Under the pieces are notes generated by a model, which had not been told where the DNA came from, did not search any database, and was given only the letters and a program-made list of their open reading frames with translations. From Candidatus Omnitrophota bacterium (lineage in GTDB: Bacteria > Omnitrophota > Gorgyraeia > Pluralincolimonadales > Pluralincolimonadaceae), in NCBI GenBank assembly GCA_003141835.1, contig PLNR01000002.1:78026-142025 (forward strand): a DNA stretch of 64,000 nt, read 5' to 3'. The position numbers were made by a program, and so were the translations under genes. The first letter of the stretch is position 1. Every line of letters starts with the position of its first letter. Of the stretch, positions 17,800-56,611 are shown piece by piece.

Positions 17800-17839
17800 C
17801 TCTTCTCCTTCTTCTTATTTATTAATTAAAAATAGTAGT

Positions 17840-19399: not shown

Positions 19400-19416
19400 A
19401 AAAAGGCCGCAAAAAG

Positions 19417-19436
19417 TTATTCACAATTTATTCACA
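19417..19436. promoter_or_regulatory. Tandem DnaA boxes upstream of dnaA (autoregulation or second oriC module).
   Basis: TTATTCACA at 19417-19425 and again at 19428-19436 (TTATNCACA consensus). They are direct repeats 11 bp apart and sit 18-37 nt upstream of the dnaA start. Confidence 0.55.
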
Positions 19437-19512
19437 GGCCGCAACCGGGGCGGGCCGTGCCAAACCTTGATAAATTATAGCAAAGAGACCGTCCGGTTGC
19501 AAGAACTTTTTC

Positions 19513-27260: not shown

Positions 27261-28721
27261 ATGATCTTAATAAATCCAAAATCAACGAGGTTCGGGATAT
27301 TTGAGAGATACGTCCCGCTCAGCGTCCCTATCGGCGTAGGTTGTCTCGCAGGTTATCTTTTGCAGCACGGCAGAAAAGCTGAGATAATAGACGAGCATAT
27401 CGAACCCCTGTCTAAAGAACTGTTGGATAAAGCGCTAGAGGGGGTCTCTCCGCCGTATATTTTTGGCATATCGACTTTAACTGCCTGCGCTCAAAGAAGT
27501 TATAGTATCTCAAGAGAAATAAAAAACCGGTATCCGGATTCAAAGGTCGTTTTGGGCGGGATACATCCTACGGTCCTTCCTGACGAAGTCCTGGGGGTAG
27601 ATACTGTCGATTTTGCCGTAAGGGGCGAAGCAGAGAAGATCCTCCTGGAGCTGTATGACGCCATAAAAAATAATAAGGACTATTCAAAGATAAAAGGGCT
27701 GTCATATAAGAACGGCGGCAAGCTTGCCCATAACCCGCCCGCGGAACTGCCGGCCCTGGACGATTTCCCCCCGTTCCCCTACCATCTTTTCAAGAATGAC
27801 CGCGGAAAATACAATTTCGGTTTCATAGCCAGCTCAAGAGGGTGCCCTTATGACTGCATTTTTTGCAGCCAGAGGGTAATATCCGGGCAGAAATTCCGCT
27901 ATGTTCCCGAAGAGATGGTGATCGGCGAGATAGATGAGCTCATTAATAAGCACGGGCAGACGCACATCAATTTCGTCGACGACAACTTTACCGCGAACAA
28001 GCAAAGGATATTCCGACTGTGCGAACTGATGATAAAGAACGGATTTCACGAGAAGGCGACCTTCGATTGCCAGACGAGGGCTGACGCGGTCAACGACGAG
28101 ATCCTGGCGCTGTTGAAAAAAGCAGGCTTCAGGGTCATCAATTACGGCCTCGAGACAGCCTCAGAACGGCTTATGGTGATGTTAAATAAGAAAGAGACCG
28201 TAGCCGACAATATCGCCGCGGTGAAACTGGCGAAGAAACATGGCTTAAGGGTCTCGGGGACTTTTATCTTCGGACTTCCCACGGAAACAAAGGAAGAGAG
28301 GCGGCAGGCTTACGAGTTGGCCAAGAAGCTGGACCTTGATTATGTCAGGTTTAATAACGCGACCCCTTATCCGGGCACGAGGTTATACGAAATGGCGAAA
28401 GAAGAGGGGCGCCTCTTCGTAGATGATGGATGGGCCAACCTTAATGCATGCGCGTCGCTGGTCCAGGACTCGATAACAGAGTCGAGGTTGCCTTATGTGC
28501 CCAAAGGTTGCGACGAGAAAGAGCTGAAAAAAGATATCATCAGGGCCAACCTGCTTTTTTCGCTCAGGCCCAAAAGGGTGCTTCGCCTGCTCACCAAAAG
28601 GATCGGGCCTGCCGGCTGGTTCTATCTCCCTCCACGGTGGTATTTAAGCTCTGAAGAATGGCGTTGTCTTATAAAACTGGGATGTAATTTATTTAAGTCG
28701 TTGGTGAAAGCATATAGCTAA
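27261..28721 (+). CDS. B12-binding (class B) radical SAM enzyme, number 1.
   Basis: N-terminal cobalamin-binding domain pattern. CxxxCxxC cluster CPYDCIFC. 486 aa. Confidence 0.8.
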   Translation: MILINPKSTRFGIFERYVPLSVPIGVGCLAGYLLQHGRKAEIIDEHIEPLSKELLDKALEGVSPPYIFGISTLTACAQRSYSISREIKNRYPDSKVVLGGIHPTVLPDEVLGVDTVDFAVRGEAEKILLELYDAIKNNKDYSKIKGLSYKNGGKLAHNPPAELPALDDFPPFPYHLFKNDRGKYNFGFIASSRGCPYDCIFCSQRVISGQKFRYVPEEMVIGEIDELINKHGQTHINFVDDNFTANKQRIFRLCELMIKNGFHEKATFDCQTRADAVNDEILALLKKAGFRVINYGLETASERLMVMLNKKETVADNIAAVKLAKKHGLRVSGTFIFGLPTETKEERRQAYELAKKLDLDYVRFNNATPYPGTRLYEMAKEEGRLFVDDGWANLNACASLVQDSITESRLPYVPKGCDEKELKKDIIRANLLFSLRPKRVLRLLTKRIGPAGWFYLPPRWYLSSEEWRCLIKLGCNLFKSLVKAYS

Positions 28722-28722
28722 A

Positions 28723-29421
28723 ATGCCATTACTTACGGTGATAATACCCGTTTATAATGAAGTAAACACATTAAAAAGCATCTTAGAAAAAGTAAATTCC
28801 GTGGATTTAGATAAGGAGATCATCGTGGTCGATGATGGCTCTTCCGACGGTACGAGAAAACTGCTGGGTGAGATCAAAAGCGATAGTATGAAGATAATCT
28901 ACCATGCCAAAAACAAGGGGAAAGGCGCTTCTTTTTTGACGGGCCTTGCAAATGCCAAGGGTGAATTTGTCATACCGCAGGACGCCGACTTAGAGTACGA
29001 TCCGCAAGATCACGTGGCTTTAGTCGATTACGCCCTGAAAAACAACTTAGCAGCGGTGTACGGGTCCCGTTTTCTAAAAACATGGAGATGCACTTATCTC
29101 TGGCACTATCTTGTAAATAGATTCCTTACGATTTTTACGAATATCCTTTTCGGGTCTTCCTTAACCGACATGGAAACCTGCTATAAGCTTATAAGGCTGG
29201 ACCTGGTAAGGGGGTTGGACCTTCAATCCAGCGGGTTTGAAATAGAGGCGGAGATAACCGGTAAGCTCCTCAAAAAAGGCCATAAAATAGCCGAGATCCC
29301 CATATCTTATAAGCCCCGTTTTGGCGATCAAGGCAAAAAAATTGGCTGGAAAGACGGCGTAAGCACCCTATTATGCCTTATTAAATTACGATTAAAAAAT
29401 GACCAGAACCATAAACCCTAA
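28723..29421 (+). CDS. GT2 glycosyltransferase, polyprenol-phosphate sugar synthase (DPM1/ArnC)-like.
   Basis: VIIPVYNE...VVDDGSSDGT...DADL (DxD). 232 aa, soluble. Confidence 0.75.
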   Translation: MPLLTVIIPVYNEVNTLKSILEKVNSVDLDKEIIVVDDGSSDGTRKLLGEIKSDSMKIIYHAKNKGKGASFLTGLANAKGEFVIPQDADLEYDPQDHVALVDYALKNNLAAVYGSRFLKTWRCTYLWHYLVNRFLTIFTNILFGSSLTDMETCYKLIRLDLVRGLDLQSSGFEIEAEITGKLLKKGHKIAEIPISYKPRFGDQGKKIGWKDGVSTLLCLIKLRLKNDQNHKP

Positions 29422-30454
29422 GCTTTTTACAAGATTCTGCGTTAATTTCAGGTATGCCGTTAGGCTTAACAAGCCCCTCCTGACGGCCCGCCTGATCAAA
29501 ACGTATTTAGCGGTCCTGTTATTTAAAAAAAGGCCGCTTAGGTACGTAGATTTTGCGATAGGATACGATTGTAATCTTAAGTGCGAACACTGCTTTGCAA
29601 CCGCCCTGCGAAACGATTCCCGGAGACGGCTAACCCTTTCGGAGCACAAGAGGGTAGTAAAAGAAGCCATGAGACTGGGCGCGGTCAACTTTTCATTTCA
29701 AGGCGGAGAACCAATCTTATACACGGAGTTGCACGATTACATCAAGAATACTTACCCCTCGCAAAACCTCATTTCGGTAACAACTAACGCCACCCTGCTG
29801 AATGAACGGAATATACGTGAATTAAAACGCTGCGGAGTGGATATATTGACGATAAGCCTGGACAGCGCCATCGCGGAAGAACACGACGGATTTCGCGGTG
29901 TCCAGGGAACTTTTGACAAGGTCATGAATAGTGTTAAGCTTGCTTTAAAAAATGGGATGAACGTTACGCTTGGAGGCGTCGCCTCGCACAAAAATATTCG
30001 GAGCAAAGGGCTTATTGATTTAATAGAACTGGCCCACCGTTTAAATGTCATTATATTTCTAGCGCTTGCGGTACCGATCGGGAGGTGGGCAGACTACAGG
30101 GAGATACTGCTCACGGATGAAGACCGGGAATATCTTTATGCCCTTGTCAGGGAATACCCGCTTTTGAGGACCGATTTTGAGGCAAATTATGTTCATTACG
30201 GATGCGGCGCCGTAAAAGAGATACTTTATCTTACGCCATACGGCGATGTGCTGGCCTGCCCGTTTATACACGTTTCACTCGGCAATATATCTGAGGAAAG
30301 CCTGGAAAGCATCAGAGAAAAAGCGCTTCGCGATCCCTATTTCGGGAATTATCACAAATTATGCCTGGCTGCGGAAGACGCCGGATTCATGGAAAAATAT
30401 TCAGGAAGCTTTTATGGTCGTGACGGGAAGGCACGCGCGTTTGGGGAGTCATGA
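29399..30454 (+). CDS. Radical SAM enzyme with a C-terminal SPASM/twitch-type auxiliary cluster domain, number 1.
   Basis: CNLKCEHC. C-terminal Cys-rich segment (HYGCGAVKEILYLTPYGDVLACPF). 351 aa. Confidence 0.7.
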   Translation: MTRTINPKLFTRFCVNFRYAVRLNKPLLTARLIKTYLAVLLFKKRPLRYVDFAIGYDCNLKCEHCFATALRNDSRRRLTLSEHKRVVKEAMRLGAVNFSFQGGEPILYTELHDYIKNTYPSQNLISVTTNATLLNERNIRELKRCGVDILTISLDSAIAEEHDGFRGVQGTFDKVMNSVKLALKNGMNVTLGGVASHKNIRSKGLIDLIELAHRLNVIIFLALAVPIGRWADYREILLTDEDREYLYALVREYPLLRTDFEANYVHYGCGAVKEILYLTPYGDVLACPFIHVSLGNISEESLESIREKALRDPYFGNYHKLCLAAEDAGFMEKYSGSFYGRDGKARAFGES

Positions 30455-31440
30455 AAAGACGCATATTTATAACAGGCGCTGGCGGATTTATTGGTTCGGC
30501 TTTAGCAAGGCGATTATCGGCCGAGGGGCATGATCTCGTTTTATTTCTGCGCGCGAATGAACGCTATCTGGGCCTTGACGGCATCCAGGCGGCTAAAGAA
30601 TACGGCGACGTTTCAGATGGCCATGGTAAAATCATGGATGCCATGAAAGGTTGCGATCTCGTATATCATTGCGCCTCTAAGATATCGTTTAACAGGTTCA
30701 ATTATGCCGAATCATATCGCATAAATGTTTTGGGCACAAGAAATGTTTTAGATGCCGCTTACCGAAATGGCATAAAAAAGTTCGCTTATATCAGCGCCTG
30801 TGCCGTTTTTGGATTCGCGAAACAGAAAGATATTATCGATGAGCGCTCCCGCTACGCGGTCAAAAAGATAAATACATATGCGTATACGAAAAAACTGGCC
30901 GAGGAAGAAGTCAGGAACTATTGCTCCAAGGGCCTGGATGCGGTTATCGTAAACCCATGCACTGTATATGGGCAGGGGGACAGGAAGCTTAATTCCGGCG
31001 CCATCATAAAAACTGTTTATCATAATAAACTTAGGTTCGCCCCACCCGGGGGGACCACCGTCATATCAATTGATGACGCGGTTGAGGGATTGATCACGGC
31101 GCTTGATAAGGGACGTAAAGGAGAAAATTATATACTCGCAAGCGAGCATATGGAATATATAGACCTTTTAAATATTATTGCGAAGATTACGGGGGCACGG
31201 CGTATTTCCGGGAAGATCCCCTCATTCTTTTATTATCCCGCCGTATTCGGAGCGGCGCTGATAGAGCTTTTTGATAGGAGGTCCGATTTCATAACGCCTC
31301 AGATAGTGAAAGAGCTGTTCGGATACAAATATTACAGCTCTTCCAAGGCAACCGCTGAACTGGGCTGGAGGCCGAAAGTTAAAATTGGCGAGGCGATACA
31401 AAAGGCCTTTATCTTTTATAGGGACCAGGGGTTGCTATGA
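30451..31440 (+). CDS. NAD-dependent sugar epimerase/dehydratase (extended SDR).
   Basis: GAGGFIGSALARRL Rossmann motif and YxxxK catalytic dyad (YAYTKKL). 329 aa. Confidence 0.8.
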   Translation: MKRRIFITGAGGFIGSALARRLSAEGHDLVLFLRANERYLGLDGIQAAKEYGDVSDGHGKIMDAMKGCDLVYHCASKISFNRFNYAESYRINVLGTRNVLDAAYRNGIKKFAYISACAVFGFAKQKDIIDERSRYAVKKINTYAYTKKLAEEEVRNYCSKGLDAVIVNPCTVYGQGDRKLNSGAIIKTVYHNKLRFAPPGGTTVISIDDAVEGLITALDKGRKGENYILASEHMEYIDLLNIIAKITGARRISGKIPSFFYYPAVFGAALIELFDRRSDFITPQIVKELFGYKYYSSSKATAELGWRPKVKIGEAIQKAFIFYRDQGLL

Positions 31441-31483
31441 ACGCAGGGCCGGGACGTAAATAACAAGGAAAAAGAGGGTAAGC

Positions 31484-32677
31484 ATGTTCACGACCACATC
31501 GGTTTATTTTTTACTTTTATTTCTTATTTTCTGGAACTACTGCGGTTATCTTATCCTGCTCTGTGTCGTATATTTCCTGAACAAAAAGGGGCCCGCGCAA
31601 AATAATGCCGGGGACGATTCTTTAAAAGTAGCGGTTCTCGTTCCTTGCTACAATGAGGAAGGGTACGCGTCGCAGAAGGCCGAAAACACCAAAGCCCTTA
31701 ATTACAACAGTGAAAGGCTGGAGGTGTTCTTTCTTAACGGGCTTTCCACGGATAATACGGGCGCAGAGATCAAAAAAGCAATAGAAGGACGCCCGAATTT
31801 CCACATCATAGAAACGGGATGCGTAGGTAAGATCAACCAGCTTAATGTGGGGCTTTCCGGCATAAAAAACGACGTGGATATCGTCGTATGCACCGATATG
31901 GATACCTTACTTGCCCCGGATTGCCTGCTTCAGTTAGGCGCTGTCTTCAAGTCAGACGCCAGGGTCGCGGCGGCAGGCGCGAACATAACCCCTGAAAAGG
32001 CGATCGATATAGAAGAGATGCACTGGAGCGACCAGAATTTTTTCCGGATACTTGAAAGCGTTGCCCTTACTTCTTCCATAGTAGTTGCGCCATGTTACGC
32101 CTTCAGGAGAGGCACGATAGACAGGTTTCCCGACGATTGCGTCGCCGACGATATTTATATCGCCTTCAAGGCGAACACGGATGGCCACATAGTTAAATAC
32201 GTGGAATCGGCGGCAGGCCGTGAACTGAGAGTACCCCGCACGTTCTCCGAATATTTCTCCCACAAGTTCCGCAAGGGGAACGCGTACATGATAGAGCTTT
32301 TGCGTTTTTTCTACCGCATGCCGCATATGTCCGGCTGGTGGAAGATGATCTACATAACAAAATTTCTGCAAGTGGTAATAATGCCGTGGCTGATCCCATA
32401 CTTCCTGCTGTCATCGCTCTCCTTGCTTCTAAGCGGATGGGGGTTGGCGCAGATCCCCGTGATGGGAATAATATTTTTGTTCATCTCCCTGGTAGCGACT
32501 TCGTCAATAATAAGGACGGAAGGAAGCAAGTTCTATAAGAATAAACGCCTCAAGATAGGGCTGAGGCCCCTGGTCTTCCTGATCAATAATTTTATACTGA
32601 TAGTAATAGGCTTGAGCTACCCATTTTACAAACAGGACAGCGCGTATTCAAAACTGGGGAAGGACAGGGGCTTATGA
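31484..32677 (+). CDS. Membrane-bound GT2 glycosyltransferase.
   Basis: N-terminal TM segment. GT2 core (VLVPCYNEE, DMD, the conserved D's). Four C-terminal TM helices. 397 aa. Confidence 0.7.
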   Translation: MFTTTSVYFLLLFLIFWNYCGYLILLCVVYFLNKKGPAQNNAGDDSLKVAVLVPCYNEEGYASQKAENTKALNYNSERLEVFFLNGLSTDNTGAEIKKAIEGRPNFHIIETGCVGKINQLNVGLSGIKNDVDIVVCTDMDTLLAPDCLLQLGAVFKSDARVAAAGANITPEKAIDIEEMHWSDQNFFRILESVALTSSIVVAPCYAFRRGTIDRFPDDCVADDIYIAFKANTDGHIVKYVESAAGRELRVPRTFSEYFSHKFRKGNAYMIELLRFFYRMPHMSGWWKMIYITKFLQVVIMPWLIPYFLLSSLSLLLSGWGLAQIPVMGIIFLFISLVATSSIIRTEGSKFYKNKRLKIGLRPLVFLINNFILIVIGLSYPFYKQDSAYSKLGKDRGL

Positions 32678-34074
32678 GTAAGATACTTCTGCTGAGCCCT
32701 CCGTACCTGCCGGAGTATATGCGCAACGCAAGGTGCGACTTCGTCTCCTTATCGGCAACGCAGTGGTACCCGATCTTATTGGGTTATTGCGGCGCATATT
32801 TGGAAGGCAAAGGTCACGAAGTTAAACTTATTGATGCACCAAGCCAGCGCCTCAACCATGAGCAGGCGCGCAAGATCGCAACAGATTACAGGCCGGATTT
32901 GCTGGTTTTATATACCGGCTTAATGAGCGAGAAGAATGACCTGGAATTTACCGATTCCCTGCTGGAAAAATTAAAATGCGACGCGGTCATCGTTGGGCCA
33001 TACGCTTCTATCGATCCCGAAGGGACGCTTGGCCGTGCGCGGTCCATTAATAAGTTAGTCGCGGGTGAGTTTGAATATCCGGTCGGCGAGGTGGCCGCAA
33101 GGGGAAAAGCGCAGGGAATAAGGAACCTGTTATATAAGGAGAACGGAAAGGTGGTCCGCAATCCCGCGCGGCCGTATCTCGGCACTAAAGAACTTGACGC
33201 AATGCCTTTTGTCTCGCGTTTTTTCCGCGGCCACATTGATATTTACCGATATAAGACCCCGTCCGAACCGTACCCTTTTATGGATATCATGACCGGGCGC
33301 GGGTGTAAATGGGGATTATGCACTTATTGCCTTTGGGTGCATACTTTCGTAAAGGGGAGCTGCTATAATTTACGCAGTATCGCAAATGTCATGGATGAGC
33401 TCCATTTTATTGAGCGCGATATGCCAGCGGTGCGCTCCGTAATGATCCAGGATGACACTTTCACGCAGGAACGGGCGGCTGAATTTTGCGAAGCCAAAAT
33501 AAGGGAGGGCATCAAGATCCCCTGGTCCTGCTATACCAGGGCCGACCTGGACCGCGAAGTATTAAAACTAATGAAAAGGTCCGGATGCCGTAATCTGCAC
33601 GTAGGTTATGAATCCGCCTCAGAGCGGGTGCTCACATTGATAAAAAAGGGATTGACCGTAGAGAGGATGACAAAATTCACCGAAGACGCGAAGCACTCGG
33701 GTTTGCGTATCCACGGTGATTTTGCCTTGGGTTTTCCCGAAGAGACCGTTGAGGATGCCGAAAAGACCATCGAATGGGCTTACAGGCTCAATCCCGATAC
33801 CGCGCAGTTCCAGCTCATGATCCCTTACCCGGGGACGCCTTTTTACGAGCTTATGGTGAAGAACAAATGGTTGAATGCCTGCGGTCAGCCGGATATGCCA
33901 AAATTCAGCAATGAACAGATACGTATGATGGCCAAGAAGGCTTACCGCCGGTTTTACCTGAGCCCGCGGTATATTTGCAAATGCCTAAGGCACCCGAGGG
34001 ACCATTTTTTTAACAGGCTAAAGACAATAAGAAGGGCCGTTCCGGCCATGTTTTGGAAGAAATGGGAGGTTTGA
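32674..34074 (+). CDS. B12-binding radical SAM enzyme, number 2.
   Basis: B12-domain N-terminus (MSKILLLSPPYLP...). Variant cluster motif CKWGLCTYC. 466 aa. Confidence 0.75.
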   Translation: MSKILLLSPPYLPEYMRNARCDFVSLSATQWYPILLGYCGAYLEGKGHEVKLIDAPSQRLNHEQARKIATDYRPDLLVLYTGLMSEKNDLEFTDSLLEKLKCDAVIVGPYASIDPEGTLGRARSINKLVAGEFEYPVGEVAARGKAQGIRNLLYKENGKVVRNPARPYLGTKELDAMPFVSRFFRGHIDIYRYKTPSEPYPFMDIMTGRGCKWGLCTYCLWVHTFVKGSCYNLRSIANVMDELHFIERDMPAVRSVMIQDDTFTQERAAEFCEAKIREGIKIPWSCYTRADLDREVLKLMKRSGCRNLHVGYESASERVLTLIKKGLTVERMTKFTEDAKHSGLRIHGDFALGFPEETVEDAEKTIEWAYRLNPDTAQFQLMIPYPGTPFYELMVKNKWLNACGQPDMPKFSNEQIRMMAKKAYRRFYLSPRYICKCLRHPRDHFFNRLKTIRRAVPAMFWKKWEV

Positions 34075-40817: not shown

Positions 40818-40818
40818 C

Positions 40819-45052: not shown

Positions 45053-45058
45053 GAAGAT

Positions 45059-46924: not shown

Positions 46925-46949
46925 AGGCTTAATTAGAAGGAAAAGGCGC

Positions 46950-47891: not shown

Positions 47892-48959
47892 ATGGAAGAC
47901 CATTTCAGGATAGACAGCCACAAGCTTATCTTCCACGTCGAGAGAGTGAATGACTGGCTTAAGGGCAAGCAGATAAGCCCGATATATCTCGAGATCGCCC
48001 CGTCAGGCGGATGCAACCACAGGTGTGTCTTTTGCGCGGTCGATTACCTGAAGTATAAAGGCGTGCTCTTAGATACGGACGTCCTTAAGAGAACGGTCAA
48101 AGAGGCGGGCGCGCTCGGCGTAAAAAGCATAATGTTTGCAGGTGAAGGCGAACCCCTGCTGCATAAGGGTATATGCGAGATAATAAGATACACGAAACGC
48201 AGAGGCATAGACGTCGCGGTCACGACCAACGGGGTCCTTCTTAAAAAAGAGGTCTCGCGGAAGATCCTGAAATACTTAAGCTGGATCAGGATAAGCCTTA
48301 ACGCGGGCACTGCCGGGACTTATTGCAAGATACACCGCACAAAGAAAGAAGATTTTTACAAGGTGATGGAGAACCTGCGCGAAGCGGTGAAGATAAAAAA
48401 GTCAGGGAAATTAAAGACGACGATCGGCGTCCAGTTATTGCTGATTCCCGGCAACGTCAAAGAGGTCGTTACCCTTGCGCGGATATTAAAAAAGACCGGC
48501 GTCGATTATCTGGCTGTCAAGCCGTATTCGCAGCATCCCTTGAGCGGGTCGCGCATAAACCCGGGATTTGACTATAGGGACCATATCTCAATGTATAAAA
48601 AACTGCGCGGCCTTGAGGATGGCAGGTTCAAGATAGCTTTCAGGGACGATACGATGAAAAGATTGGGTTCGGAAAAGGAGTACGGGCGCTGTTTGGGGCT
48701 GCCGTTCTGGGCTTATATCGACGCGAACGGTGAAGTATACGCCTGCAGCGCTTTCCTCGGGAAGAAGGAATACAGTTTCGGCAATATTTATAAGAATAAT
48801 TTTAAGGATATAATAAAAAGCAAGCGCAGGAGATTGGTGATGGCCGGGATAAGCTCAAAGATGGATGTGGAGAAATGCCGCAGGGCCTGCCGGCTGGATA
48901 AGATCAACAGCTACCTCTGGGAGTTGAGCAACCCGGGGCCGCACGTTAATTTCATTTAA
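47892..48959 (+). CDS. Radical SAM enzyme with a SPASM/twitch-like C-terminus, paralog 1 (ends ...PHVNFI).
   Basis: CNHRCVFC. C-terminal Cys cluster. 355 aa. Paralog of 51770..52873. Confidence 0.7.
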   Translation: MEDHFRIDSHKLIFHVERVNDWLKGKQISPIYLEIAPSGGCNHRCVFCAVDYLKYKGVLLDTDVLKRTVKEAGALGVKSIMFAGEGEPLLHKGICEIIRYTKRRGIDVAVTTNGVLLKKEVSRKILKYLSWIRISLNAGTAGTYCKIHRTKKEDFYKVMENLREAVKIKKSGKLKTTIGVQLLLIPGNVKEVVTLARILKKTGVDYLAVKPYSQHPLSGSRINPGFDYRDHISMYKKLRGLEDGRFKIAFRDDTMKRLGSEKEYGRCLGLPFWAYIDANGEVYACSAFLGKKEYSFGNIYKNNFKDIIKSKRRRLVMAGISSKMDVEKCRRACRLDKINSYLWELSNPGPHVNFI

Positions 48960-48960
48960 G

Positions 48961-49947
48961 GTGAAGATGCCAAAACAGGACAGGGGCCGCGATCTTATAC
49001 GGATATACGAGATGATGCTGAAGATCCGCCTTTTCGAGGAACGGGTCATCAGTTTGTATCCTAAGGAAGAAATGAAGACGCCGGTCCATCTATGCGTCGG
49101 CCAGGAGGCTATCGCGGCAGGAGTTTGCCGCAACCTCACCGATAAAGATTATGTTTTTACGAACCACCGCTGCCACGGCCATTGCCTGGCGAAGGGGATG
49201 AGCATGTCTTCCATCATGGCCGAGCTTTACGGGAAGAGGGCCGGCTGCTGCAAGGGGAAAAGCGGTTCCATGCATCTCTCCGACCCGGATAAAGGCATCC
49301 TCGCAACATCGGCCATAGTCGCGGGGAACATCCCCATAGCCGTTGGGGCGGCGCTGAGCCTGAAACTCAGGAGGAGAGGGGGTATCGCGGCCGTCTTTTT
49401 CGGGGACGGGGCTGCAGACGAAGGCGCGTTCTACGAAAGCCTTAATTTTGCCTCGCTGAAAAAACTGCCGGTCTTATTTATCTGCGAGAATAATTTTTAC
49501 GCCACGAATTCCAGGCAGGAAACAAGACAGCCGTTGGATAACATATTTAAAAGGGGCGGGATCTTCGGGATAAAGGGGTTCCGCTGCGACGGCAACGACG
49601 CCGTGAAAGTATTCGACCTCTCAAGAGGCCTGGTCGAAAAGATAAGGAAAGGTTCGGGGCCGTATCTTATGGAATGCCGGACTTACCGCTGGAAGGGACA
49701 CGTCGGGCCGGATTGCGATTTTGAAAAAGGCTGCCGGCCGAAATATGAGCATGATGCCTGGGTAAAAAGATGTCCGGTAAGGAAGCTCGAAGGCATATTA
49801 TTGAAGAAGGGTGCGCTGACCGGCAAAGGGATCGAAAACATGCGCCGCCGCATTACAAGAGAAATAACGAAAGCGGAGAAATTCGCAAAGAAAAGCCGTT
49901 TCCCCGCAAGCAGTGAACTTTACGACGATGTATACTGGAAGGAATAA
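48961..49947 (+). CDS. TPP-dependent dehydrogenase E1 component, alpha subunit.
   Basis: TPP-binding GDG(X)n N motif (FFGDGAADEGAFYESLNFA...ICENN). 328 aa. Confidence 0.8.
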   Translation: MKMPKQDRGRDLIRIYEMMLKIRLFEERVISLYPKEEMKTPVHLCVGQEAIAAGVCRNLTDKDYVFTNHRCHGHCLAKGMSMSSIMAELYGKRAGCCKGKSGSMHLSDPDKGILATSAIVAGNIPIAVGAALSLKLRRRGGIAAVFFGDGAADEGAFYESLNFASLKKLPVLFICENNFYATNSRQETRQPLDNIFKRGGIFGIKGFRCDGNDAVKVFDLSRGLVEKIRKGSGPYLMECRTYRWKGHVGPDCDFEKGCRPKYEHDAWVKRCPVRKLEGILLKKGALTGKGIENMRRRITREITKAEKFAKKSRFPASSELYDDVYWKE

Positions 49948-49949
49948 GC

Positions 49950-51002
49950 ATGCCTTGGACTAATGTTGCGGTAGGCAGGGCGTTAAAGGGCAGATATTCC
50001 GCGGATAAGCCCGCGTCAGGCCGGACTTTAAACTATAGGGAGGCATTGAGAGAAGCCCTCTATCAGGCCCTCAAGAGGGACTCCAGGGTTTTTATCCTGG
50101 GGGAGGGCGTAGACGATTCCGCCGGGGTTTTCGGCTCTACGGTAGGGTTGCATAAAGATTTTCCCGGAAGGGTCTTCGATACGCCGATCGCCGAAAACGG
50201 ACTGACCGGTTTCGCTGTAGGAGCGGCCCTGGCCGGGATGAGGCCGGTACTGGTCCATATGAGGATGGATTTCCTCCCGCTCTCTTTCGACCAGATATTG
50301 AACCACGCCGCGAAATTATGTTATATGTCGGGCGGGATGAGCAATGTCCCGCTGGTAATACGGGCGGTTATAGGCAGGGGATGGGGCTCTGCGGCGCAGC
50401 ATTCGCAAAGCCTGCAGGCGATGTTCATGCATATGCCGGGCATAAAAGTCGTCGCGCCAAGTTCCGCGTATGACGCCAAGGGATTACTGCTATCAAGCAT
50501 AGCCGACGGGAACCCGGTCATTTTTATCGAACACCGCTGGCTTTACGATATGAAAGGCGGCGTCCCGGAAAAGGAATATTTTGTACCCATCGGGAAAGGC
50601 GTTATCAGGCGGCCGGGGAAAGACGCGACCGTAGTCGCTGTTTCCCTGATGGTGAACGAAGCCGCTAAGGCCGCGAAGGAGCTTAAGGACGGCGGCATAG
50701 ATATAGAAATAATAGACCCGAGGTCCCTCGTCCCTTTTGACGAAAAGATAGTCGTGGATTCAGTGAAAAAGACAGGCAGGCTCGTCATCGCGGATATGGG
50801 GTGGCGCTCCGGAGGCGCGGCCGAGATAATTTTAGGGCGGATCCACGGCAAGATAAGGAGATACCTTAAAGCAGACGTGCAGATAGTGGCGCTTCCGGAC
50901 ACTCCGACACCAGCGTGCCCCCGGCTGGAAAAAGCGTTCTACAAGGGTTCCGGGGACATAGTAAAGGCGGTAAGAAAGGCCTATGGATTACGAAAAAAAT
51001 AA
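49950..51002 (+). CDS. TPP-dependent dehydrogenase E1 component, beta subunit (transketolase-like).
   Basis: Transketolase Pyr and C-terminal domains (FDTPIAENGLTGFAVGAALAGMRP). 350 aa. Sits next to and co-directional with the alpha subunit. Confidence 0.8.
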   Translation: MPWTNVAVGRALKGRYSADKPASGRTLNYREALREALYQALKRDSRVFILGEGVDDSAGVFGSTVGLHKDFPGRVFDTPIAENGLTGFAVGAALAGMRPVLVHMRMDFLPLSFDQILNHAAKLCYMSGGMSNVPLVIRAVIGRGWGSAAQHSQSLQAMFMHMPGIKVVAPSSAYDAKGLLLSSIADGNPVIFIEHRWLYDMKGGVPEKEYFVPIGKGVIRRPGKDATVVAVSLMVNEAAKAAKELKDGGIDIEIIDPRSLVPFDEKIVVDSVKKTGRLVIADMGWRSGGAAEIILGRIHGKIRRYLKADVQIVALPDTPTPACPRLEKAFYKGSGDIVKAVRKAYGLRKK

Positions 51003-51750
51003 ACTTAGCATCATAATGCCGGCTTTGAACGAAGAGGCCAATATACGCGATGCCGTCTCAAGTACGCTTAAGGCGCTTGGCCTTTTTAATATCAACGGAG
51101 AGATCGTAATAGTCAACGACGGCAGCACCGACCGGACCGGGGCGCTGGCCGAAGAAATATCCAGGGAATATCCGGGCCGCGTCAGCGTAATAAATCATGA
51201 CAAGCCGAAAGGCATAGGCGCATCGTTCTGGGAAGGCGTGGACTCGGCTAAAGGCGATGCCATCGTCATGGTACCGGGGGACAACGAGAACGACCCGCAA
51301 GAGGTATTCCGTTATTATAAGCTGCTTGAGCAGGTGGATATCGTGATCCCCTTCATTTTCAACAGGGAGGCGAGGCCTTTATTCAGGAACGTCCTCTCGC
51401 TCCTCTACCGTTTTATAATCAATACGACCTTCCTCGTCAATTTCAATTACACGAACGGTACCATCCTTTACAGGAGGTCTATTTTATGGGGGATAGACGA
51501 ACGCTCCGGCGGCTTCTTCTTCCAGACCGATATATTGATCAGGGCCGTGAAAAATGGCTATCTCTTCGCCGAGGTCCCCTATAAGGTAGGCTCGAGGAAG
51601 AACGGTTCCTCCAAGGCAATAAGCTTCCCGTCCCTGTTCAAGGTCATCGAAGGTTACCTGAAACTGGTAAAAGATTTTTATTTCAGTAAAGATAAAAAAC
51701 GGCAGCAGGAGTACTCGAGCGATTCGCAGACAGCCGCCCGCAAGAAATAA
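50983..51750 (+). CDS. GT2 glycosyltransferase, polyprenol-phosphate sugar synthase-like.
   Basis: LSIIMPALNEE...IVNDGSTDRT...PGDNE. 255 aa. Confidence 0.75.
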   Translation: MDYEKNKLSIIMPALNEEANIRDAVSSTLKALGLFNINGEIVIVNDGSTDRTGALAEEISREYPGRVSVINHDKPKGIGASFWEGVDSAKGDAIVMVPGDNENDPQEVFRYYKLLEQVDIVIPFIFNREARPLFRNVLSLLYRFIINTTFLVNFNYTNGTILYRRSILWGIDERSGGFFFQTDILIRAVKNGYLFAEVPYKVGSRKNGSSKAISFPSLFKVIEGYLKLVKDFYFSKDKKRQQEYSSDSQTAARKK

Positions 51751-51769
51751 CCGGCAGCAAAATTTAAAT

Positions 51770-52873
51770 ATGGACAAATTGATACTGGACGGCCAAAAAT
51801 TGATATGGCACCAGGAGCGCCTCAAGGCCTGGCTCAAGGACGAGAGGATCGCGCCTATAACCATCGACTGCTCATTGACCAGGAGATGCACTTACAGGTG
51901 CGCCTATTGTTACGGCGCGCTGCAGGCCAACGACGAAAAGAAGATGACCAAAGACGTGATATTCAGGTTCCTGGATGACGCGGCCGAGATAGGCGTCAAG
52001 GCGGTGAGCTTTGTTAGCGATGGTGAAAGCACTTGTTCGCCGCATTTTTACGATGCTGTCCTGAGAGGGAAGGCGAATGGGCTCGACATGGCCGTCGGGA
52101 CGAACGGCTACCTGCTTAAGGAAGAGCGCCTCGAAGAAATATTGCCCGCCCTGACTTATATAAGGTTTAACATATCCGCCGCTGACCCGAAAAGGTACGC
52201 GCAGATACACGGTTGCGGCGAGAAGTGTTTTGAAAAGGTCTGCCGGACCATCCGCGAATGCGTAAGGATAAAAAAGGCGAAGGGGCTGGATGTCACGATC
52301 GGTCTGCAGATGGTCCTTTTGCCGGATTTTATAGACCAGGTGAAACCGCTTGCCAAGCTCGGGAAAGACCTCGGGGTTGATTACACTATTTTTAAACACT
52401 GCAGCGATGATGAGAAGGGGAGCCTTGGCGTCGATTATTCGAAATACAAAAAGTACATCGACGTGCTAAAGGAAGCCGAGAAACTCTCGACGGAAGACTA
52501 TAAGGTTGCCGTCAAGTGGTCGAAGATATTAAGCGATGGAAAGAGGGACTACTGCCGTTGTTACGGCCCGCCTTTCATCATGCAGTTTTCCGGCTCGGGC
52601 CTTGTTGCTCCATGCGGGATGTTATTTAACGAAAAATATTCAAAATACCATATCGGGAACATAGCGGAAAAATCGTTTAAAGAGATATGGCGGAGCGAAC
52701 GCTATTGGGAGGTCATACGCCTGGTCTCCTCGGATAAGTTTGACGCCCGGACGATGTGCGGTACCTTATGCTTACAGCATAAGGTAAACGAATTTTTGTG
52801 GGACCTCAAGAACGGGAAGACCTCCCCTGAAAAACCCGAGGGGAAACCCCCGGCGCATATCAATTTCATATGA
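51770..52873 (+). CDS. Radical SAM enzyme with a SPASM/twitch-like C-terminus, paralog 2 (ends ...PAHINFI).
   Basis: CTYRCAYC. 367 aa. Co-linear with 47892..48959. Confidence 0.7.
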   Translation: MDKLILDGQKLIWHQERLKAWLKDERIAPITIDCSLTRRCTYRCAYCYGALQANDEKKMTKDVIFRFLDDAAEIGVKAVSFVSDGESTCSPHFYDAVLRGKANGLDMAVGTNGYLLKEERLEEILPALTYIRFNISAADPKRYAQIHGCGEKCFEKVCRTIRECVRIKKAKGLDVTIGLQMVLLPDFIDQVKPLAKLGKDLGVDYTIFKHCSDDEKGSLGVDYSKYKKYIDVLKEAEKLSTEDYKVAVKWSKILSDGKRDYCRCYGPPFIMQFSGSGLVAPCGMLFNEKYSKYHIGNIAEKSFKEIWRSERYWEVIRLVSSDKFDARTMCGTLCLQHKVNEFLWDLKNGKTSPEKPEGKPPAHINFI

Positions 52874-53349
52874 ACGCCATATCTCACGCCTTACTGACGT
52901 TTTTTGTCGCCATGCTGGTCCACTTGGCTATCTGGAGGATCCGCTTGCCGAAGAAGAACAGGGCCATCGTCCTGTTGAATGTTTTTTTCTGGACGCTGGT
53001 TTTAGGAGTTATCCTGCTGGAGGGTATTTCAAGCTATACGGATTACATAGTCCTGTATTGCTGCCTGGCCGCTGCTTATATCGTTTCTTACCCGGCTATG
53101 GAGGCCGACAGCCCGTCGCTTGAAATAGTGCGTAACATTGCCAAAGCCGGCGCGTCCGGGCTGGAGAAAGGGGAGCTCTACAGTACAATGACCGACGAGA
53201 AACTGGTAGTCGCAAGGGTCGAAGACCTTTTAAATGACGGCCTGGCCAGGTTGGATTCCGGTAAATATATGCTGACCCCGAAAGGGCGTTTCCTGGCGGG
53301 CGTATTTGTATGGTTTCGCGGGCTCTTGAACGCCCCGAAGGGCGGCTAA
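52870..53349 (+). CDS. Small membrane protein with a possible C-terminal winged-helix-like domain. Paralog A.
   Basis: 159 aa. Three N-terminal TM helices and a soluble C-terminus. Confidence 0.45.
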   Translation: MNAISHALLTFFVAMLVHLAIWRIRLPKKNRAIVLLNVFFWTLVLGVILLEGISSYTDYIVLYCCLAAAYIVSYPAMEADSPSLEIVRNIAKAGASGLEKGELYSTMTDEKLVVARVEDLLNDGLARLDSGKYMLTPKGRFLAGVFVWFRGLLNAPKGG

Positions 53350-53834
53350 GCGGGATGGGCGATAACGGCATGCATATTTTTATTCCTTTTATCGGTTTAG
53401 CGGCGAACAGTCTTGCCCAGGTCGCTGTTTTCAGGTTTTTTCCGAGGATAGGATTGCTGAGGTCCGTGTTTTTCGGGTTTGCGTGCGGATTCATCGCGTC
53501 ATTACTGGTAACACCCGGCGCTATGTCAGCGAGTAATTTCGCGATATACGTCTTGCTTGGTTATTGTTATTTTCATTTTGTCAACATGGGCGAGACCGCC
53601 CGCAGGATACGCATCCTGACGGAATTAGCGGATGCCGGAAACGGCCTTTCGCTGGGAGAGATACTGGGGCGCTATAACTCCAAGGATATCATAGACCGGC
53701 GCCTCACCAGGCTCATCAACAGCGGACAGATAAGATGCGAAAATGGGAGATGCTATACCGGAAACGTAACCGTGCTGGCGATGGCCGGTTTTTTGGCGGC
53801 CGCGAAAAGGATCATTTTTGGTGAAATGCGATGA
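53310..53834 (+). CDS. Small membrane protein. Paralog B of the preceding gene.
   Basis: Same architecture. The true start is probably internal (MGDNGMHIF at about 53355), which would remove the overlap with the preceding gene. Confidence 0.4.
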   Translation: MVSRALERPEGRLSGMGDNGMHIFIPFIGLAANSLAQVAVFRFFPRIGLLRSVFFGFACGFIASLLVTPGAMSASNFAIYVLLGYCYFHFVNMGETARRIRILTELADAGNGLSLGEILGRYNSKDIIDRRLTRLINSGQIRCENGRCYTGNVTVLAMAGFLAAAKRIIFGEMR

Positions 53835-54682
53835 AGCCGATCAAAGTACCCGGTAACTACAATTATATAGCCGTTTTTTTGACGTTCGCCTGCAACCTGA
53901 AATGCAGCTACTGCATAAATAATTTCGAGCAGAAACTGATAAAGAGGAGAGTCGTCCCGGGAAAGGATCTCGTCATCGGGTTGAACAGGATCGTCTCAAG
54001 GGAGGACCTCCCGGTGACCCTTCAAGGCGGAGAGCCCACCTTGCATCCGGATTTTTACTATATCGTCAACAACCTGAAGCCGGAACTTAACATTGATCTC
54101 CTCACGAACCTGCAGTTCGACGCGGACGAGTTCATCGCGAATGTCGATCCGGGCAGGATCAAGAGGGACTCTCCGTACGCGTCGATAAGGGTCAGCTATC
54201 ATCCGGAACAGATGAAACTCGACGATCTCATAAAAAAGACGCTTAAGCTGAAAGACGCGAAATTCAGTGTGGGGATATGGGGAGTTTTGCATCCGGCCTC
54301 GGAGAAGGTCATCCTCGAGGCGATGGAGAGATGCAAAAAACTGGGCATCGATTTCCGCACCAAGGAGTTTTTGGGCGGGCACGAGGGGCGCTTATACGGG
54401 ACGTACAAGTATCCGGGCGCCTTCGACGGGAAGTCCAGGAAGAAAGTGAAATGCAGGACGACAGAATTCCTGATAGACAGCGAGGGCAGCGTTTTCCGGT
54501 GCCACGCAGACCTTTATGCGGGCAAGAACAGGATCGGCAGCATCCTTGACGCGGGGTTTGAGATAGAAAACAAATTCAGGGATTGCGCCGACTTCGGGCA
54601 CTGCAACCCGTGCGACGTAAAGGTCAAGACCAATAGGTTCCAGGAATACGGCCATACCTCCGTAGAAATAGAGATCCCATGA
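53831..54682 (+). CDS. Small radical SAM enzyme with a twitch-like Cys cluster.
   Basis: CNLKCSYC at residues 21-28. C-terminal CRTT...CHAD...C..FGHCNPC. 283 aa. Confidence 0.7.
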   Translation: MKPIKVPGNYNYIAVFLTFACNLKCSYCINNFEQKLIKRRVVPGKDLVIGLNRIVSREDLPVTLQGGEPTLHPDFYYIVNNLKPELNIDLLTNLQFDADEFIANVDPGRIKRDSPYASIRVSYHPEQMKLDDLIKKTLKLKDAKFSVGIWGVLHPASEKVILEAMERCKKLGIDFRTKEFLGGHEGRLYGTYKYPGAFDGKSRKKVKCRTTEFLIDSEGSVFRCHADLYAGKNRIGSILDAGFEIENKFRDCADFGHCNPCDVKVKTNRFQEYGHTSVEIEIP

Positions 54683-56574
54683 TGGCATTACTCCTTCCCG
54701 CGGTCATCGTCATTTCGGGCGCGATTGCGTACCTGAATTCGCTGTTAAATCCTTTTATCTGGGATGATGCATTCCTGATCGCCGCGAACCTGCACATAAG
54801 GTCCCTCGGGTTTATCCCAAGGCTTTTTCTCGAGAACGTCTATCATCAGGATATGGTAGGCAGGTTCTACCGGCCCGTGCTGATGACCAGTTTCGCGTTA
54901 GATTATCATCAATGGGGGCTGGACCCGTTCGGTTACCATATAACTAATATCCTGATACATCTGGGCAACGCGCTGCTCGTGTTCGGTATTATCCGCCTGG
55001 TCTTCCGGAGGAAGCTCCTTGCTTTTTTGACGGCCATGCTGTTTGTATTACACCCTGTCCAGGTCGAGTCAGTGACATATATCTCCGGAAGGGCGGATCT
55101 GCTCGCGGCATTTTTCTGTCTCCTGACCCTTTATTTCTTTATAAGATATGCCGACTTTGGCGGTTACAGGAGAAAGCTTTATTTCGGGGCCTCCGTATTA
55201 TCTTTTTTGTCGGCCCTTTTTTCAAAGGAGTCGGCCGTGGTCTTTCCCTTAATACTCATCTTCTATGAAACTTGTTTTAGGAAAGACGGGATTAAGGGTA
55301 ATAAGTCCTTGAAATACGCATTCTACGCCGCGGCCTTGCTGGTCTTCGGCATCATAAGGCATCTGGTCCTGCTTAATGTTAAAGGCACTTTGACCGCGAG
55401 CGGTTCTTTGCCCCTGTCGGACCGTTTTTGTCTCATCCCGTCCATTATCTTTACGTACATAAAGCTGCTCCTGTTCCCGAAAGGATTGCACATGGAACGA
55501 AGCGACTTTCTGTTCGAGAGGCCGCACTATTTTTTTGACCACCGCGTTATCATCGCCATTTTTGCCCTGATCGCGGTCGCAATATTTGTATGGCTGGTGA
55601 GAAAGCGCCGCAGGGAAGCGCTCTTCGGCTTCGGATGGTTCATCCTCCTGCTCATACCCGTCTTAAACATCATCCCCATAAACGCTTTCATAGCGGAACA
55701 TTGGCTTTACCTCCCTTCCGCCGGTTTTTTCCTTTTATGTTCGTCTGCGCTCATCGGTCTTTTCCGTTTCGAATCGATAAAGCTTTGCATAGCGAGCTTC
55801 ATGGTCGTCATTTTAGTCATGCTGTGCACGCTTACCATAAGGCAGAACTATATATGGAGGGACCCCGTATTCTTTTATAAATATACTTTAAAGTTCTCTC
55901 CCCTGAGCACCCGCCTGCGCACTAATTTAGGCGTCGAATACTTCAATCTTGGCTTATATAAGGATGCGGAGAGGGAATTAAGGCTCGCGCTCGCCGCCGA
56001 ACCGGCAGGCGTAAACGCGGTCAATGACTACATAAACCTCGGGGCCGCGCTTTATTGGCAGGGGAAGAAGAAGGAATCGATGGAGGCTTATGATAACGCC
56101 ATAAGGCTTAAACCGGATTCTCCCCTGGGGTACTGGTTCATGGCTAACATCCTTTTCCATGACAACCAGACGAAGAAAGCCATAGGGTTTTACAAGAAGG
56201 CCGCCGAATTAGTTCCATCCAACGCTTCCTATTGGCTTACGCTGGGCAATGCCTATCAGAAGGATAAGGATCTCAAGGAAGCTGAAGGGGCGTACAAAAA
56301 GGCCATCGCGGCATATCCGGCTTTCTTTGAGGCCAGGATAAACCTGGGCGCCGTTTATTACAGGCAAGGCCTCTTTAAAAAAGCATTCGGGGAATACGGG
56401 GACGCCATGAAGATCGACCCGGAAAGCCCCGAATCTTATTATGGCATCGGGAACATCAGCGCCGCGATCGGGAAGGCCCAAGAGGCCAGGGATTTCTGGG
56501 AAGAGGCGCTTAAAAAGGACCCGAACCATGCCGGCGCGAAAAAGAAACTCGAAAAAGCCGGAAAAAAGAAGTAA
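54679..56574 (+). CDS. TPR-repeat membrane glycosyltransferase, GT-C, TMTC/PMT-like O-mannosyltransferase family.
   Basis: N-terminal multi-TM domain with a DD motif in the first loop (NPFIWDDAFLIA). C-terminal roughly 200 aa of TPR repeats. 631 aa. Confidence 0.55.
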   Translation: MMALLLPAVIVISGAIAYLNSLLNPFIWDDAFLIAANLHIRSLGFIPRLFLENVYHQDMVGRFYRPVLMTSFALDYHQWGLDPFGYHITNILIHLGNALLVFGIIRLVFRRKLLAFLTAMLFVLHPVQVESVTYISGRADLLAAFFCLLTLYFFIRYADFGGYRRKLYFGASVLSFLSALFSKESAVVFPLILIFYETCFRKDGIKGNKSLKYAFYAAALLVFGIIRHLVLLNVKGTLTASGSLPLSDRFCLIPSIIFTYIKLLLFPKGLHMERSDFLFERPHYFFDHRVIIAIFALIAVAIFVWLVRKRRREALFGFGWFILLLIPVLNIIPINAFIAEHWLYLPSAGFFLLCSSALIGLFRFESIKLCIASFMVVILVMLCTLTIRQNYIWRDPVFFYKYTLKFSPLSTRLRTNLGVEYFNLGLYKDAERELRLALAAEPAGVNAVNDYINLGAALYWQGKKKESMEAYDNAIRLKPDSPLGYWFMANILFHDNQTKKAIGFYKKAAELVPSNASYWLTLGNAYQKDKDLKEAEGAYKKAIAAYPAFFEARINLGAVYYRQGLFKKAFGEYGDAMKIDPESPESYYGIGNISAAIGKAQEARDFWEEALKKDPNHAGAKKKLEKAGKKK

Positions 56575-56582
56575 CCATCTTG

Positions 56583-56611
56583 TTGACAAATGGGCCTATA
56601 TGTAATAAAAT
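56583..56611 (+). promoter_or_regulatory. Sigma70-type promoter for ndk.
   Basis: TTGACA (56583-56588), a 17-nt spacer, then TAAAAT (56606-56611). The SD AAGGA and the ATG at 56641 follow. Confidence 0.5.

Follow-up and report, generated by a model that had tools for sequence, protein, structure and literature searches.

A locus rich in radical SAM and glycosyltransferase genes beside the replication origin of a Candidatus Omnitrophota bacterium

Gene content of the locus

We describe a locus at positions 27261–56574 of a window of 64,000 nucleotides from a Candidatus Omnitrophota bacterium (contig PLNR01000002.1), in which genes for radical S-adenosylmethionine (rSAM) enzymes are interleaved with genes for glycosyltransferases (GTs), polytopic membrane proteins and an enzyme dependent on thiamine diphosphate (TPP). 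The preliminary description of this DNA had reported a near-gapless, co-directional string of 24 genes, and the list of open reading frames (ORFs) bears this out: all 24 ORFs lie on the + strand, most neighbours overlap by 1–47 nt, and the widest internal gap is 43 nt (31440 to 31484). From this spacing only, we infer that the locus is one operon. Scans of the locus for promoters and terminators gave the same counts as shuffled sequence, and thus spoke neither for nor against operon structure. The best sigma-70-like match of the region (11/12; TTGACA, 17 nt, TAAAAT) was found at 56583–56611, in the 66-nt gap between the last cluster gene and ndk; lying after the last gene, this promoter-like site is consistent with an operon end at 56574. 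Genes are named below by their lowest coordinate. Related loci are labelled L and a number. A search of metagenomes with the aligned 51770 family returned 80 loci; unless stated otherwise, counts refer to the 36 of these that are at least 12 kb long.

The rSAM genes make up 11 of the 24 (binomial P of about 1e-12, a rough estimate that assumes a genomic background of about 2%). The number first reported was confirmed, since all 11 products (27261, 29399, 32674, 36095, 38275, 39288, 40819, 41796, 47892, 51770 and 53831) exceed the Pfam gathering score of PF04055 (40.5–101.5 bits; cut-off 29.5 bits), which together with the cluster motif places each of them in the radical SAM superfamily. Five had been assigned to class B, the cobalamin (B12)-binding enzymes. 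Their cluster motifs were found as quoted (CPYDCIFC, CKWGLCTYC, CPFRCTFC, CPYNCIFC and CHFECNFC, the second being the Cx4Cx2C motif of 32674), and the B12-binding domain PF02310 exceeds its gathering score of 32.1 bits in 27261 (58.7 bits), 36095 (61.3 bits) and 39288 (73.0 bits). For 32674 (27.4 bits) and 41796 (22.2 bits) the assignment is less secure, the domain being below the cut-off; both nevertheless align over their full length with NCBIfam models of B12-type rSAMs.

The B12-binding rSAM encoded at 27261–28721 (486 aa; CPYDCIFC; PF04055 101.5 bits) has relatives in 11 of the 36 loci. The product of 36095–38278 (727 aa; PF04055 75.6 bits) carries at its C-terminus a fused class I SAM methyltransferase (PF08241, 69.6 bits), which in the related locus L082 is encoded by its own gene; its best solved relative in the PDB is AprD4, and TsrM and TokK were also matched. 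The gene at 39288–40817 (509 aa) is accessory; its product scored 237 bits with the NCBIfam model of the Sden_1168-family P-methyltransferase, against a cut-off of 575. The last of the five, at 41796–43199, is B12-rSAM-like with a weak B12 domain (PF04055 46.5 bits), and its NCBIfam ranking runs from HpnJ (116 bits) through BchE (96.5 bits) to AprD4, a diol dehydratase, in third place (86 bits). The cobalamin rSAM family also holds enzymes that are not methylases, HpnJ, BchE and AprD4 among them. The proposal that all five B12-type enzymes are C-methylases is therefore not one to be assumed: 32674 is HpnJ-like, which suggests ring contraction rather than methylation, and 41796 has only the weak B12 domain.

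By far the nearest NCBIfam model to the B12-type rSAM 32674 (32674–34074) is HpnJ (TIGR03471), matched over the full length with 315.9 bits, about half of the cut-off of 577.6 bits, while the next-best model reached 106 bits. The protein may be a candidate for sugar ring contraction or rearrangement. Directly upstream, in an echo of hpnI-hpnJ, lies a synthase-type membrane GT of family 2 (GT2) at 31484–32677 (397 aa, four transmembrane (TM) helices; PF00535, PF13632 and PF13641; PgaC 72.6 bits, below the cut-off). The short-chain dehydrogenase/reductase (SDR) recognised earlier at 30451–31440 is an NAD-dependent epimerase/dehydratase (PF01370, 116.3 bits) nearest to HpnA (203 bits; cut-off 368). 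Several of the B12-type rSAMs also gave low-score matches to lipid-related models (rSAM_ladder_B12 and HpnR). Together, these likenesses to HpnI, HpnJ and HpnA raise the alternative of a membrane-lipid head group, hopanoid-side-chain-like or calditol-like, made by a pathway whose product is a glycolipid and not the decoration of a polymer or glycoprotein. In such a pathway, a lipid would be glycosylated by the membrane GT2, ring contraction of the sugar by the HpnJ-like rSAM would yield a cyclitol, and the remaining rSAMs would act on the lipid by methylation or cross-linking. We consider this unlikely, as every Hpn-model score is well below its cut-off, HpnI is not among the NCBIfam matches of 31484, the window holds no squalene-hopene cyclase (SHC), HpnH, HpnG or HpnK and thus no core hopanoid genes, and the core cassette described below is accompanied by nucleotide-sugar, GT4, Wzx, Wzt and Maf genes rather than by lipid genes. 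True HpnI and HpnJ occur only in genomes with SHC and HpnH (PMC12324291). With scores at about half the cut-offs and neither SHC nor HpnH in the window, a hopanoid pathway was rejected as the principal explanation.

The remaining six rSAMs had been described as having Cys-rich C-termini of the SPASM or twitch type, and we counted three to seven C-terminal Cys in each of them. Seven, as in a SPASM domain, occur in 38275 (38275–39309) and 40819 (40819–41817; SPASM 56.9 bits), both accessory. Twitch-like C-termini are found in 29399 (29399–30454; three Cys; PF04055 75.2 bits, SPASM 25.9 bits) and, with four Cys, in 47892 (47892–48959) and 51770 (51770–52873). The short rSAM 53831 (53831–54682; 283 aa; PF04055 40.5 bits) has five; it has no Pfam SPASM match, while 29399, 40819, 47892 and 51770 score above the SPASM cut-off. 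The twitch-like enzymes 47892 and 51770, also called rS47 and rS51, are paralogues with 33% identity. The best PDB matches of 47892 are BlsE (3e-11) and DesII (7e-7), both sugar-modifying rSAMs, and those of 51770 are PqqE and MoaA only, at E 1e-5. Four Cys (C264, C282, C330 and C334) are invariant across the 51770 family, for which we found no curated model or published function.

The TPP enzyme pair was correctly recognised. The gene at 48961–49947 encodes an E1 alpha-like subunit (328 aa; PF00676, 221.9 bits) that retains the GDG...NN thiamine-diphosphate motif, and 49950–51002 encodes an E1 beta-like subunit (350 aa; PF02779 and PF02780). The pair resembles the E1 of pyruvate dehydrogenase (PDH) or another 2-oxoacid dehydrogenase, with 319.5 bits for the PDH E1 alpha model (cut-off 393.85) and 304.2 bits for E1 beta (cut-off 321) in NCBIfam, and no gene for an E2 or E3 partner is present in the window. 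In this it is like AviB1/AviB2 of avilamycin and Pau11/Pau12 of paulomycin, which are also split E1 pairs in sugar pathways lacking E2 and E3 and are proposed to move a two-carbon (C2) unit from pyruvate onto a 4-keto sugar (PMC4425429). Pau11 and Pau12 have 325 and 345 aa (PMC4425429); the likeness of our pair to these proteins is one of size and sugar context. The AviB and Pau pairs differ in belonging to aerobic actinomycete antibiotic pathways with the non-haem iron enzyme AviO2 instead of rSAMs, and the E1 slot of cassettes homologous to ours can hold a split transketolase. C2 branching of sugars by E1 alpha/beta pairs had been ascribed to O-antigen pathways; it is documented in antibiotic pathways, whereas the O-antigen sugar yersiniose is branched by YerE, an unrelated TPP flavoprotein (PMC4425429).

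Three GT2s of the DPM1/ArnC type had been named, a label that suits two of them, 28723 and 50983, which are nearest to polyprenyl-phosphate GTs, and not 31484, the four-TM synthase-type enzyme. The first, at 28723–29421, is a small soluble protein (232 aa; PF00535, 105.7 bits) that is AglJ-, PpgS- and DPM1-like, with NCBIfam scores below the cut-offs (AglJ 101.7 bits, PpgS 54.6 bits). The second, at 50983–51750, is likewise small and soluble (255 aa) and DPM1/ArnC/GtrB-like; its best PDB matches are the Dol-P-Man synthase of Pyrococcus (5mlz, 9e-17), ArnC (1e-10) and GtrB (5e-9). The GT9 gene seen earlier is also present, at 46878–47891, with PF01075 (52.7 bits) confined to residues 240–311 in its C-terminal part. 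This heptosyltransferase-family-like GT scored 49.1 bits with the Heptosyltransferase II model (cut-off 134.6), all NCBIfam heptosyltransferase models remaining below their cut-offs, and it is 58% identical to its counterpart in L086, a locus like those of the candidate phyla radiation (CPR).

The locus encodes six large polytopic membrane proteins, including GT-C types, and two small ones. Two large proteins are DUF2079 paralogues, at 43187–45052 (PF09852, 193.3 bits) and 45059–46924 (PF09852, 199.2 bits); DUF2079 belongs to the GT-C clan. The GT-C-type protein at 54679–56574 has about nine TM helices and C-terminal TPR repeats with Pfam matches. Its N-terminus matched PMT_2-annotated proteins in hhalign (97.8%, E 7e-13), and this homology supports the GT-C call; a weak hhalign link also joins it to 43187 (71.8%). 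Pfam and hhalign thus uphold the TPR-bearing GT-C and the two DUF2079 paralogues of the preliminary description. The protein of 34053–36095 (673–680 aa, about 11 TM helices and a C-terminal alpha/beta domain) has no Pfam or NCBIfam match and only six homologues in a database search; its AF2 model has a pLDDT of 54, and a Foldseek search of the PDB gave no match at E ≤0.001. A further polytopic protein is encoded on the - strand, at 25583–27187 (534 aa, about 10 TM helices; no Pfam match). It is divergently transcribed, has a 74% identical counterpart at the equivalent place in L082, and may count as the 25th gene of the locus.

The two small membrane proteins, partners encoded at 52870–53349 and 53310–53834, each have about three TM helices and a soluble domain of about 80 residues, C-terminal in the former, where a faint HemN_C-like match was seen (E 0.026). 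No family was found for either. When 52870, 53310, 34053 and 25583 were searched against Pfam at relaxed stringency (E up to 5) and against NCBIfam, only noise came back. In related loci 52870 and 53310 co-occur with the GT2, and they match no flippase family. They may serve as adaptors, not flippases, by which soluble rSAM or GT2 enzymes are held at the membrane.

A further alternative is a system for ribosomally synthesised and post-translationally modified peptides (RiPPs) or for protein maturation, in which the rSAMs would modify a peptide or protein encoded elsewhere. The SPASM and B12-type enzymes do match many peptide-maturase models weakly, and the TPR repeats of 54679 could bind protein. 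All maturase scores are far below the cut-offs, however, and the CxxxCxxC motif of each of the six non-B12 rSAMs begins between residues 21 and 58, leaving no room for an N-terminal RiPP recognition element (RRE), nor was any RRE-type Pfam match found. As had been noted, no gap could fit a precursor gene, the widest being the 43 nt given above, and both small ORFs are the three-TM membrane proteins. The locus holds no protease, leader peptidase or ABC exporter, and the neighbours of the cassette in other genomes are sugar enzymes. We therefore regard a RiPP or protein-maturation system as highly improbable, and rejected it for want of precursor space and an RRE.

The cassette in related loci

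The twitch-like rSAM 51770 is the most conserved gene of the cassette. At E ≤1e-30 its family comprised 6371 of the 8000 scored candidates (cluster representatives), and more than 120 cluster representatives were at least 74% identical to it, including proteins of Omnitrophota and one of Magasanikbacteria (CPR). At least 550 metagenome stretches encode a relative. Identity across phyla is 70–90%. Around it, a core order recurs across phyla: GT9, 47892, the TPP pair 48961/49950, the GT2 50983, 51770, the 52870/53310 pair, 53831 and the GT-C-TPR gene 54679. What is kept across loci is the series 47892-type rSAM, TPP pair, GT2 and 51770-type rSAM, together with the adjacency of GT and rSAM genes. 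A TPP enzyme pair is present in 33 of the 36 loci, mostly directly upstream of the 51770 homologue or of its GT2. A 50983-like GT2 is found in 27/36, usually directly upstream of the 51770 homologue, and among 52 loci a small GT2 holds that position in 27. The 47892-like rSAM occurs in 21/36 loci, 18 of which have it upstream of the TPP pair. The 52870/53310 pair is present in 10–11 of the 36, and a 53831-like rSAM often adjoins a GT9 gene (L086, L088 and L158). In the CPR-like loci, the cassette stands with PMT_2, GT4s, a Wzx-like flippase, methyltransferases and a polysaccharide deacetylase.

The TPP slot is filled in two ways. An E1 alpha/beta pair was found in 15–16 of the 36 loci and a split transketolase in 14–16. 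In the latter, the N- and C-terminal halves are separate genes, as at L117:1151-1981 with its neighbouring ORF, and in L108, L113, L115, L120, L125, L165 and others. Of the hints that the enzyme in this slot transfers a C2 unit to an rSAM-generated carbonyl, the strongest is the interchange of E1 and split transketolase between the two twitch rSAMs.

Directly before the cassette, 16–21 of the 36 loci have genes that recall the ADP-heptose pathway (GmhA/HldE): a GmhA-like SIS isomerase in 16/36 (for example L115:6136-6714) and an HldE-related fusion of kinase and nucleotidyltransferase in 21/36 (for example L108:564-2099). The resemblance is a distant one, because no score comes near its equivalog cut-off (rfaE domain I 114 bits, domain II 84 bits) and the fusion has the opposite domain order to the HldE model, its adenylyltransferase-like domain being N-terminal. 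The GDP-octose pathway of the lincosamides (LmbR/N/P/K/O) presumably offers a similar likeness among higher-sugar nucleotides. A second SDR occurs in 19/36 loci and one or more DegT aminotransferases in 13/36. Other genes seen before the cassette elsewhere encode a GSU2086-family protein (NF052581, 391 bits, L096:1063-2028) and a 163-aa RfaE-domain-II-like nucleotidyltransferase (L111:3426-3917). None of these GSU2086-family, RfaE-domain-II-like, HldE-like or GmhA-like genes is present in our window, where a GT9-family gene stands in place of the GmhA/HldE-like genes.

The variable part of the locus is its set of B12-type and SPASM rSAMs, which differs even between close relatives. In L082 (about 82% identical), the order of 27261–36095 is kept and is followed by a second B12-type rSAM, whose best match in the window is 27261 at about 32% identity, and then by a DUF2079 protein; close counterparts of 38275, 39288, 40819 and 41796 are absent. 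In L100, a single B12 rSAM lies between the 34053-like gene and DUF2079. These differences in content show the rSAM complement to be plastic. A Humidesulfovibrio locus, L083, holds orthologue-like copies of nine window genes at 38–68% identity: 36095 (58%), 39288 (43%), 38275 (40%), 40819 (38%), 41796 (41%), 47892 (43%), E1 alpha 48961 (54%), E1 beta 49950 (53%) and 51770 (68%). The strict alternation of B12 and SPASM enzymes in the window had suggested paired modules, an idea that did not survive this comparison, as the rSAM order of L083 (B12, B12, rSAM, SPASM, B12) breaks the alternation, L082 lacks the three middle genes and L100 has one rSAM in their place. The L083 set adjoins genes for a Gtf3_C glycosyltransferase, an MptE-like (Maf-type) protein and a CTP_transf_3 cytidylyltransferase resembling CMP-sugar synthetases, and these neighbours tie the rSAM and E1 genes to activated-sugar chemistry.

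Relatives of 36095 were also found at the end of sugar operons in two O-antigen-like loci, L084 (Fundidesulfovibrio butyratiphilus) and L172 (a Nitrospinota contig), after a block of an SDR, a hexapeptide acyltransferase, a GT2-DegT fusion and another hexapeptide acyltransferase. L172 additionally encodes two YfhO GT-C proteins and a SPASM rSAM, as well as Wzt and a methyltransferase. The two loci appear to represent a second type of rSAM-containing glycan locus, distinct from the first. One context of the 36095 family, in Elusimicrobia, is not related to glycans.

A proposed route to tailored envelope sugars

We propose that the locus is probably a modular operon that makes and exports unusual, anaerobically tailored sugars for an envelope glycoconjugate, a reading that draws its support mainly from comparative genomics. 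It agrees with the earlier preference for a glycoconjugate pathway over a RiPP system, in that the GT2s are near polyprenyl-phosphate GTs, GT-C partners are present, and the cassettes occur in sugar-nucleotide and glycan loci elsewhere. Extracytoplasmic glycosylation by three components combines a polyprenyl-phosphate GT2, a flippase and a GT-C enzyme, as in ArnC/ArnEF/ArnT, GtrB/GtrA/GtrC and PpgS/Rv3632/Rv3779 (review PMC11127046). Our locus is similar in that small DPM1/ArnC/GtrB/PpgS-like GT2s adjoin GT-C-type and small membrane proteins, and the DPM1-like GT2s and GT-C proteins point to delivery outside the cytoplasmic membrane in polyprenyl-phosphate-linked form. It is unlike the described systems in having at least three GT-C genes, GT2s without predicted TM helices and no detected flippase domain of the GtrA or ArnE/F type, and in the 11 rSAMs and the TPP enzyme interleaved with these genes.

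The proposed route would start from a nucleotide-activated sugar made elsewhere in the genome. This would most likely be of the heptose type, to judge from the divergent HldE/GmhA genes ahead of the cassette in most other genomes and the GT9 gene ahead of it here. A twitch rSAM would oxidise or otherwise activate the sugar, a role suggested by the nearness of 47892 to the sugar-modifying BlsE and DesII. The TPP enzyme would then move a C2 unit onto the resulting carbonyl, giving a branched or chain-extended higher sugar. The unit could be hydroxyethyl from pyruvate with the E1 type or glycolaldehyde with the transketolase type of other loci, and the outcome would be a branch in the first case (AviB-type) or a chain extension in the second. 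A further radical step would be performed by 51770. The B12 rSAMs and the fused SAM methyltransferase would add C- or O-methyl groups, and the HpnJ-like enzyme beside the membrane GT2 may rearrange or contract the sugar ring. We infer all of these chemical steps, and the decorations made by this last group of enzymes would vary with the lineage. In the final steps, the soluble DPM1-like GT2s would load the sugars on polyprenyl phosphate, anchoring or flipping of the intermediate may fall to the small membrane proteins, and at least three GT-C enzymes (the two DUF2079 proteins and 54679) would carry out the transfer of the sugars to an acceptor beyond the cytoplasmic membrane.

Several results weigh against parts of this proposal. 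In neither 28723 nor 50983 was a TM helix predicted, unlike in ArnC and GtrB, and the use of polyprenyl phosphate by these small GT2s thus remains putative; PpgS and human DPM1 are precedents for soluble polyprenyl-phosphate GT2s. Pfam searches of the locus, relaxed ones included, detected no flippase of the GtrA or Wzx type. For 34053 and 25583 no fold could be assigned, and iterative HMM and hhalign comparisons with PMT_2 and DUF2079 alignments revealed no relationship. The 64-kb window holds no genes for nucleotide-sugar synthesis (HldE, GmhA, transketolase or nucleotidyltransferase), which makes the starting sugar a guess. None of the 11 rSAMs reached an NCBIfam equivalog cut-off, and this, together with the distant PDB matches of 51770, means that individual reactions are not assignable. 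Finally, the rSAM/E1 set of L083 is present without a GT2 or any GT-C, so that the rSAM steps probably precede lipid loading or run independently of it, and the radical steps more likely act on soluble than on lipid-linked intermediates.

The nearest characterised relatives of the tailoring enzymes come from antibiotic pathways (AprD4, BlsE, DesII, AviB1/B2 and Pau11/12), and the rSAMs share the twitch or B12-type architecture of antibiotic sugar-tailoring enzymes (BtrN, DesII, BlsE, AprD4 and GenK/GenD1), although the E-values of 47892 with BlsE and DesII and of 36095 with AprD4 are weak (1e-7 to 1e-20). The locus could thus make a diffusible small molecule, aminoglycoside-, cyclitol- or orthosomycin-like, instead of a surface structure. 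That is quite unlikely, and somewhat less credible still than a lipid head group. The eight membrane proteins, six large ones with GT-C types among them and two small, speak for the surface. No transporter, resistance or regulator gene is present in the locus, which occupies a core-genome position beside parAB and about 8 kb from dnaA. The genes belong to an envelope locus in the primary genome of uncultured anaerobes, not to a secondary-metabolite cluster, and the cassette is common in the small genomes of Omnitrophota and CPR, where it is embedded in glycan-assembly loci.

For the envelope-glycan pathway, a more specific version can be put forward tentatively, and we hold it with less than even confidence: the conserved core would be an undescribed, O2-independent route to branched or chain-extended higher-carbon sugars on the surfaces of ultra-small, often host-dependent bacteria (Omnitrophota and CPR) and of some Desulfobacterota. 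The window would then be an extreme elaboration of it, in which five extra B12-type rSAMs give a heavily methylated or rearranged sugar new to glycans. Its parts are of known kinds, namely GT2 plus GT-C glycosylation, sugar tailoring by rSAMs and E1-type C2 transfer. Full-text literature searches returned no description of the cassette or of DUF2079, and neither NCBIfam (June 2026) nor Pfam holds a curated cassette family; the combination of parts and the density of rSAMs are unreported, and the core is widespread but unstudied.

Most of the rSAM sugar chemistry characterised so far belongs to antibiotic pathways or to a small number of lipid head groups. The locus suggests that such chemistry, with TPP-dependent C2 transfer, is routine in envelope glycan synthesis of anaerobic, mostly uncultured lineages. 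Cells of Omnitrophota and CPR are tiny and often attached to hosts, and their surface sugars therefore likely matter for their lifestyle. The cassette is a compact set of candidates for new C-C bond-forming, methylating and ring-rearranging sugar reactions, and its conserved core of four to five genes is small enough for reconstitution.

Genomic setting

The window is chromosomal and adjoins the replication origin, with dnaA, dnaN, gyrB and gyrA on the - strand. Just upstream of the locus lie yidC, mnmG, parA and parB (+ strand), and ndk, yicC, gmk and coaBC follow it. The MnmG protein shares 76–77% identity with that of Candidatus Omnitrophota MAGs, and the search with MnmG revealed no synteny of the cluster. 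The oriC region is likely at 17800–19500, near dnaA (18038–19399, -) and dnaN (16699–17799, -). DnaA-box-like 9-mers cluster at 17.9–19.4 kb, at 17923, 17984, 18005 (a perfect TTATCCACA), 19417 and 19428, and the AT skew switches sign near 19–20 kb. The position of oriC places the operon start about 8 kb from dnaA. GC content is 0.45–0.47 over the first two thirds of the cluster (28000–46000) and 0.53–0.55 in the upstream housekeeping region (1–14000), a difference compatible with horizontal acquisition of glycan modules. A cluster identical to the one described here is present in a Logan assembly and in an NCBI contig, without informative annotation.

Further genes in the window include an LpxA-like UDP-GlcNAc acyltransferase (7413–8228, -) and GlmS (8907–10736, -). 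The lpxA-like gene suggests a diderm with lipid A, which bears on the possible acceptors of the sugars. At 5362–7461 (-), a protein of 699 aa joins an N-terminal PilZ domain to a GH2-type TIM-barrel glycosidase, which would be an unusual fusion of c-di-GMP receptor and glycosidase. Directly after ndk, 57144–58919 encodes a protein of 591 aa with a weak partial match to PEPCK_ATP (55 bits, residues 81–334).

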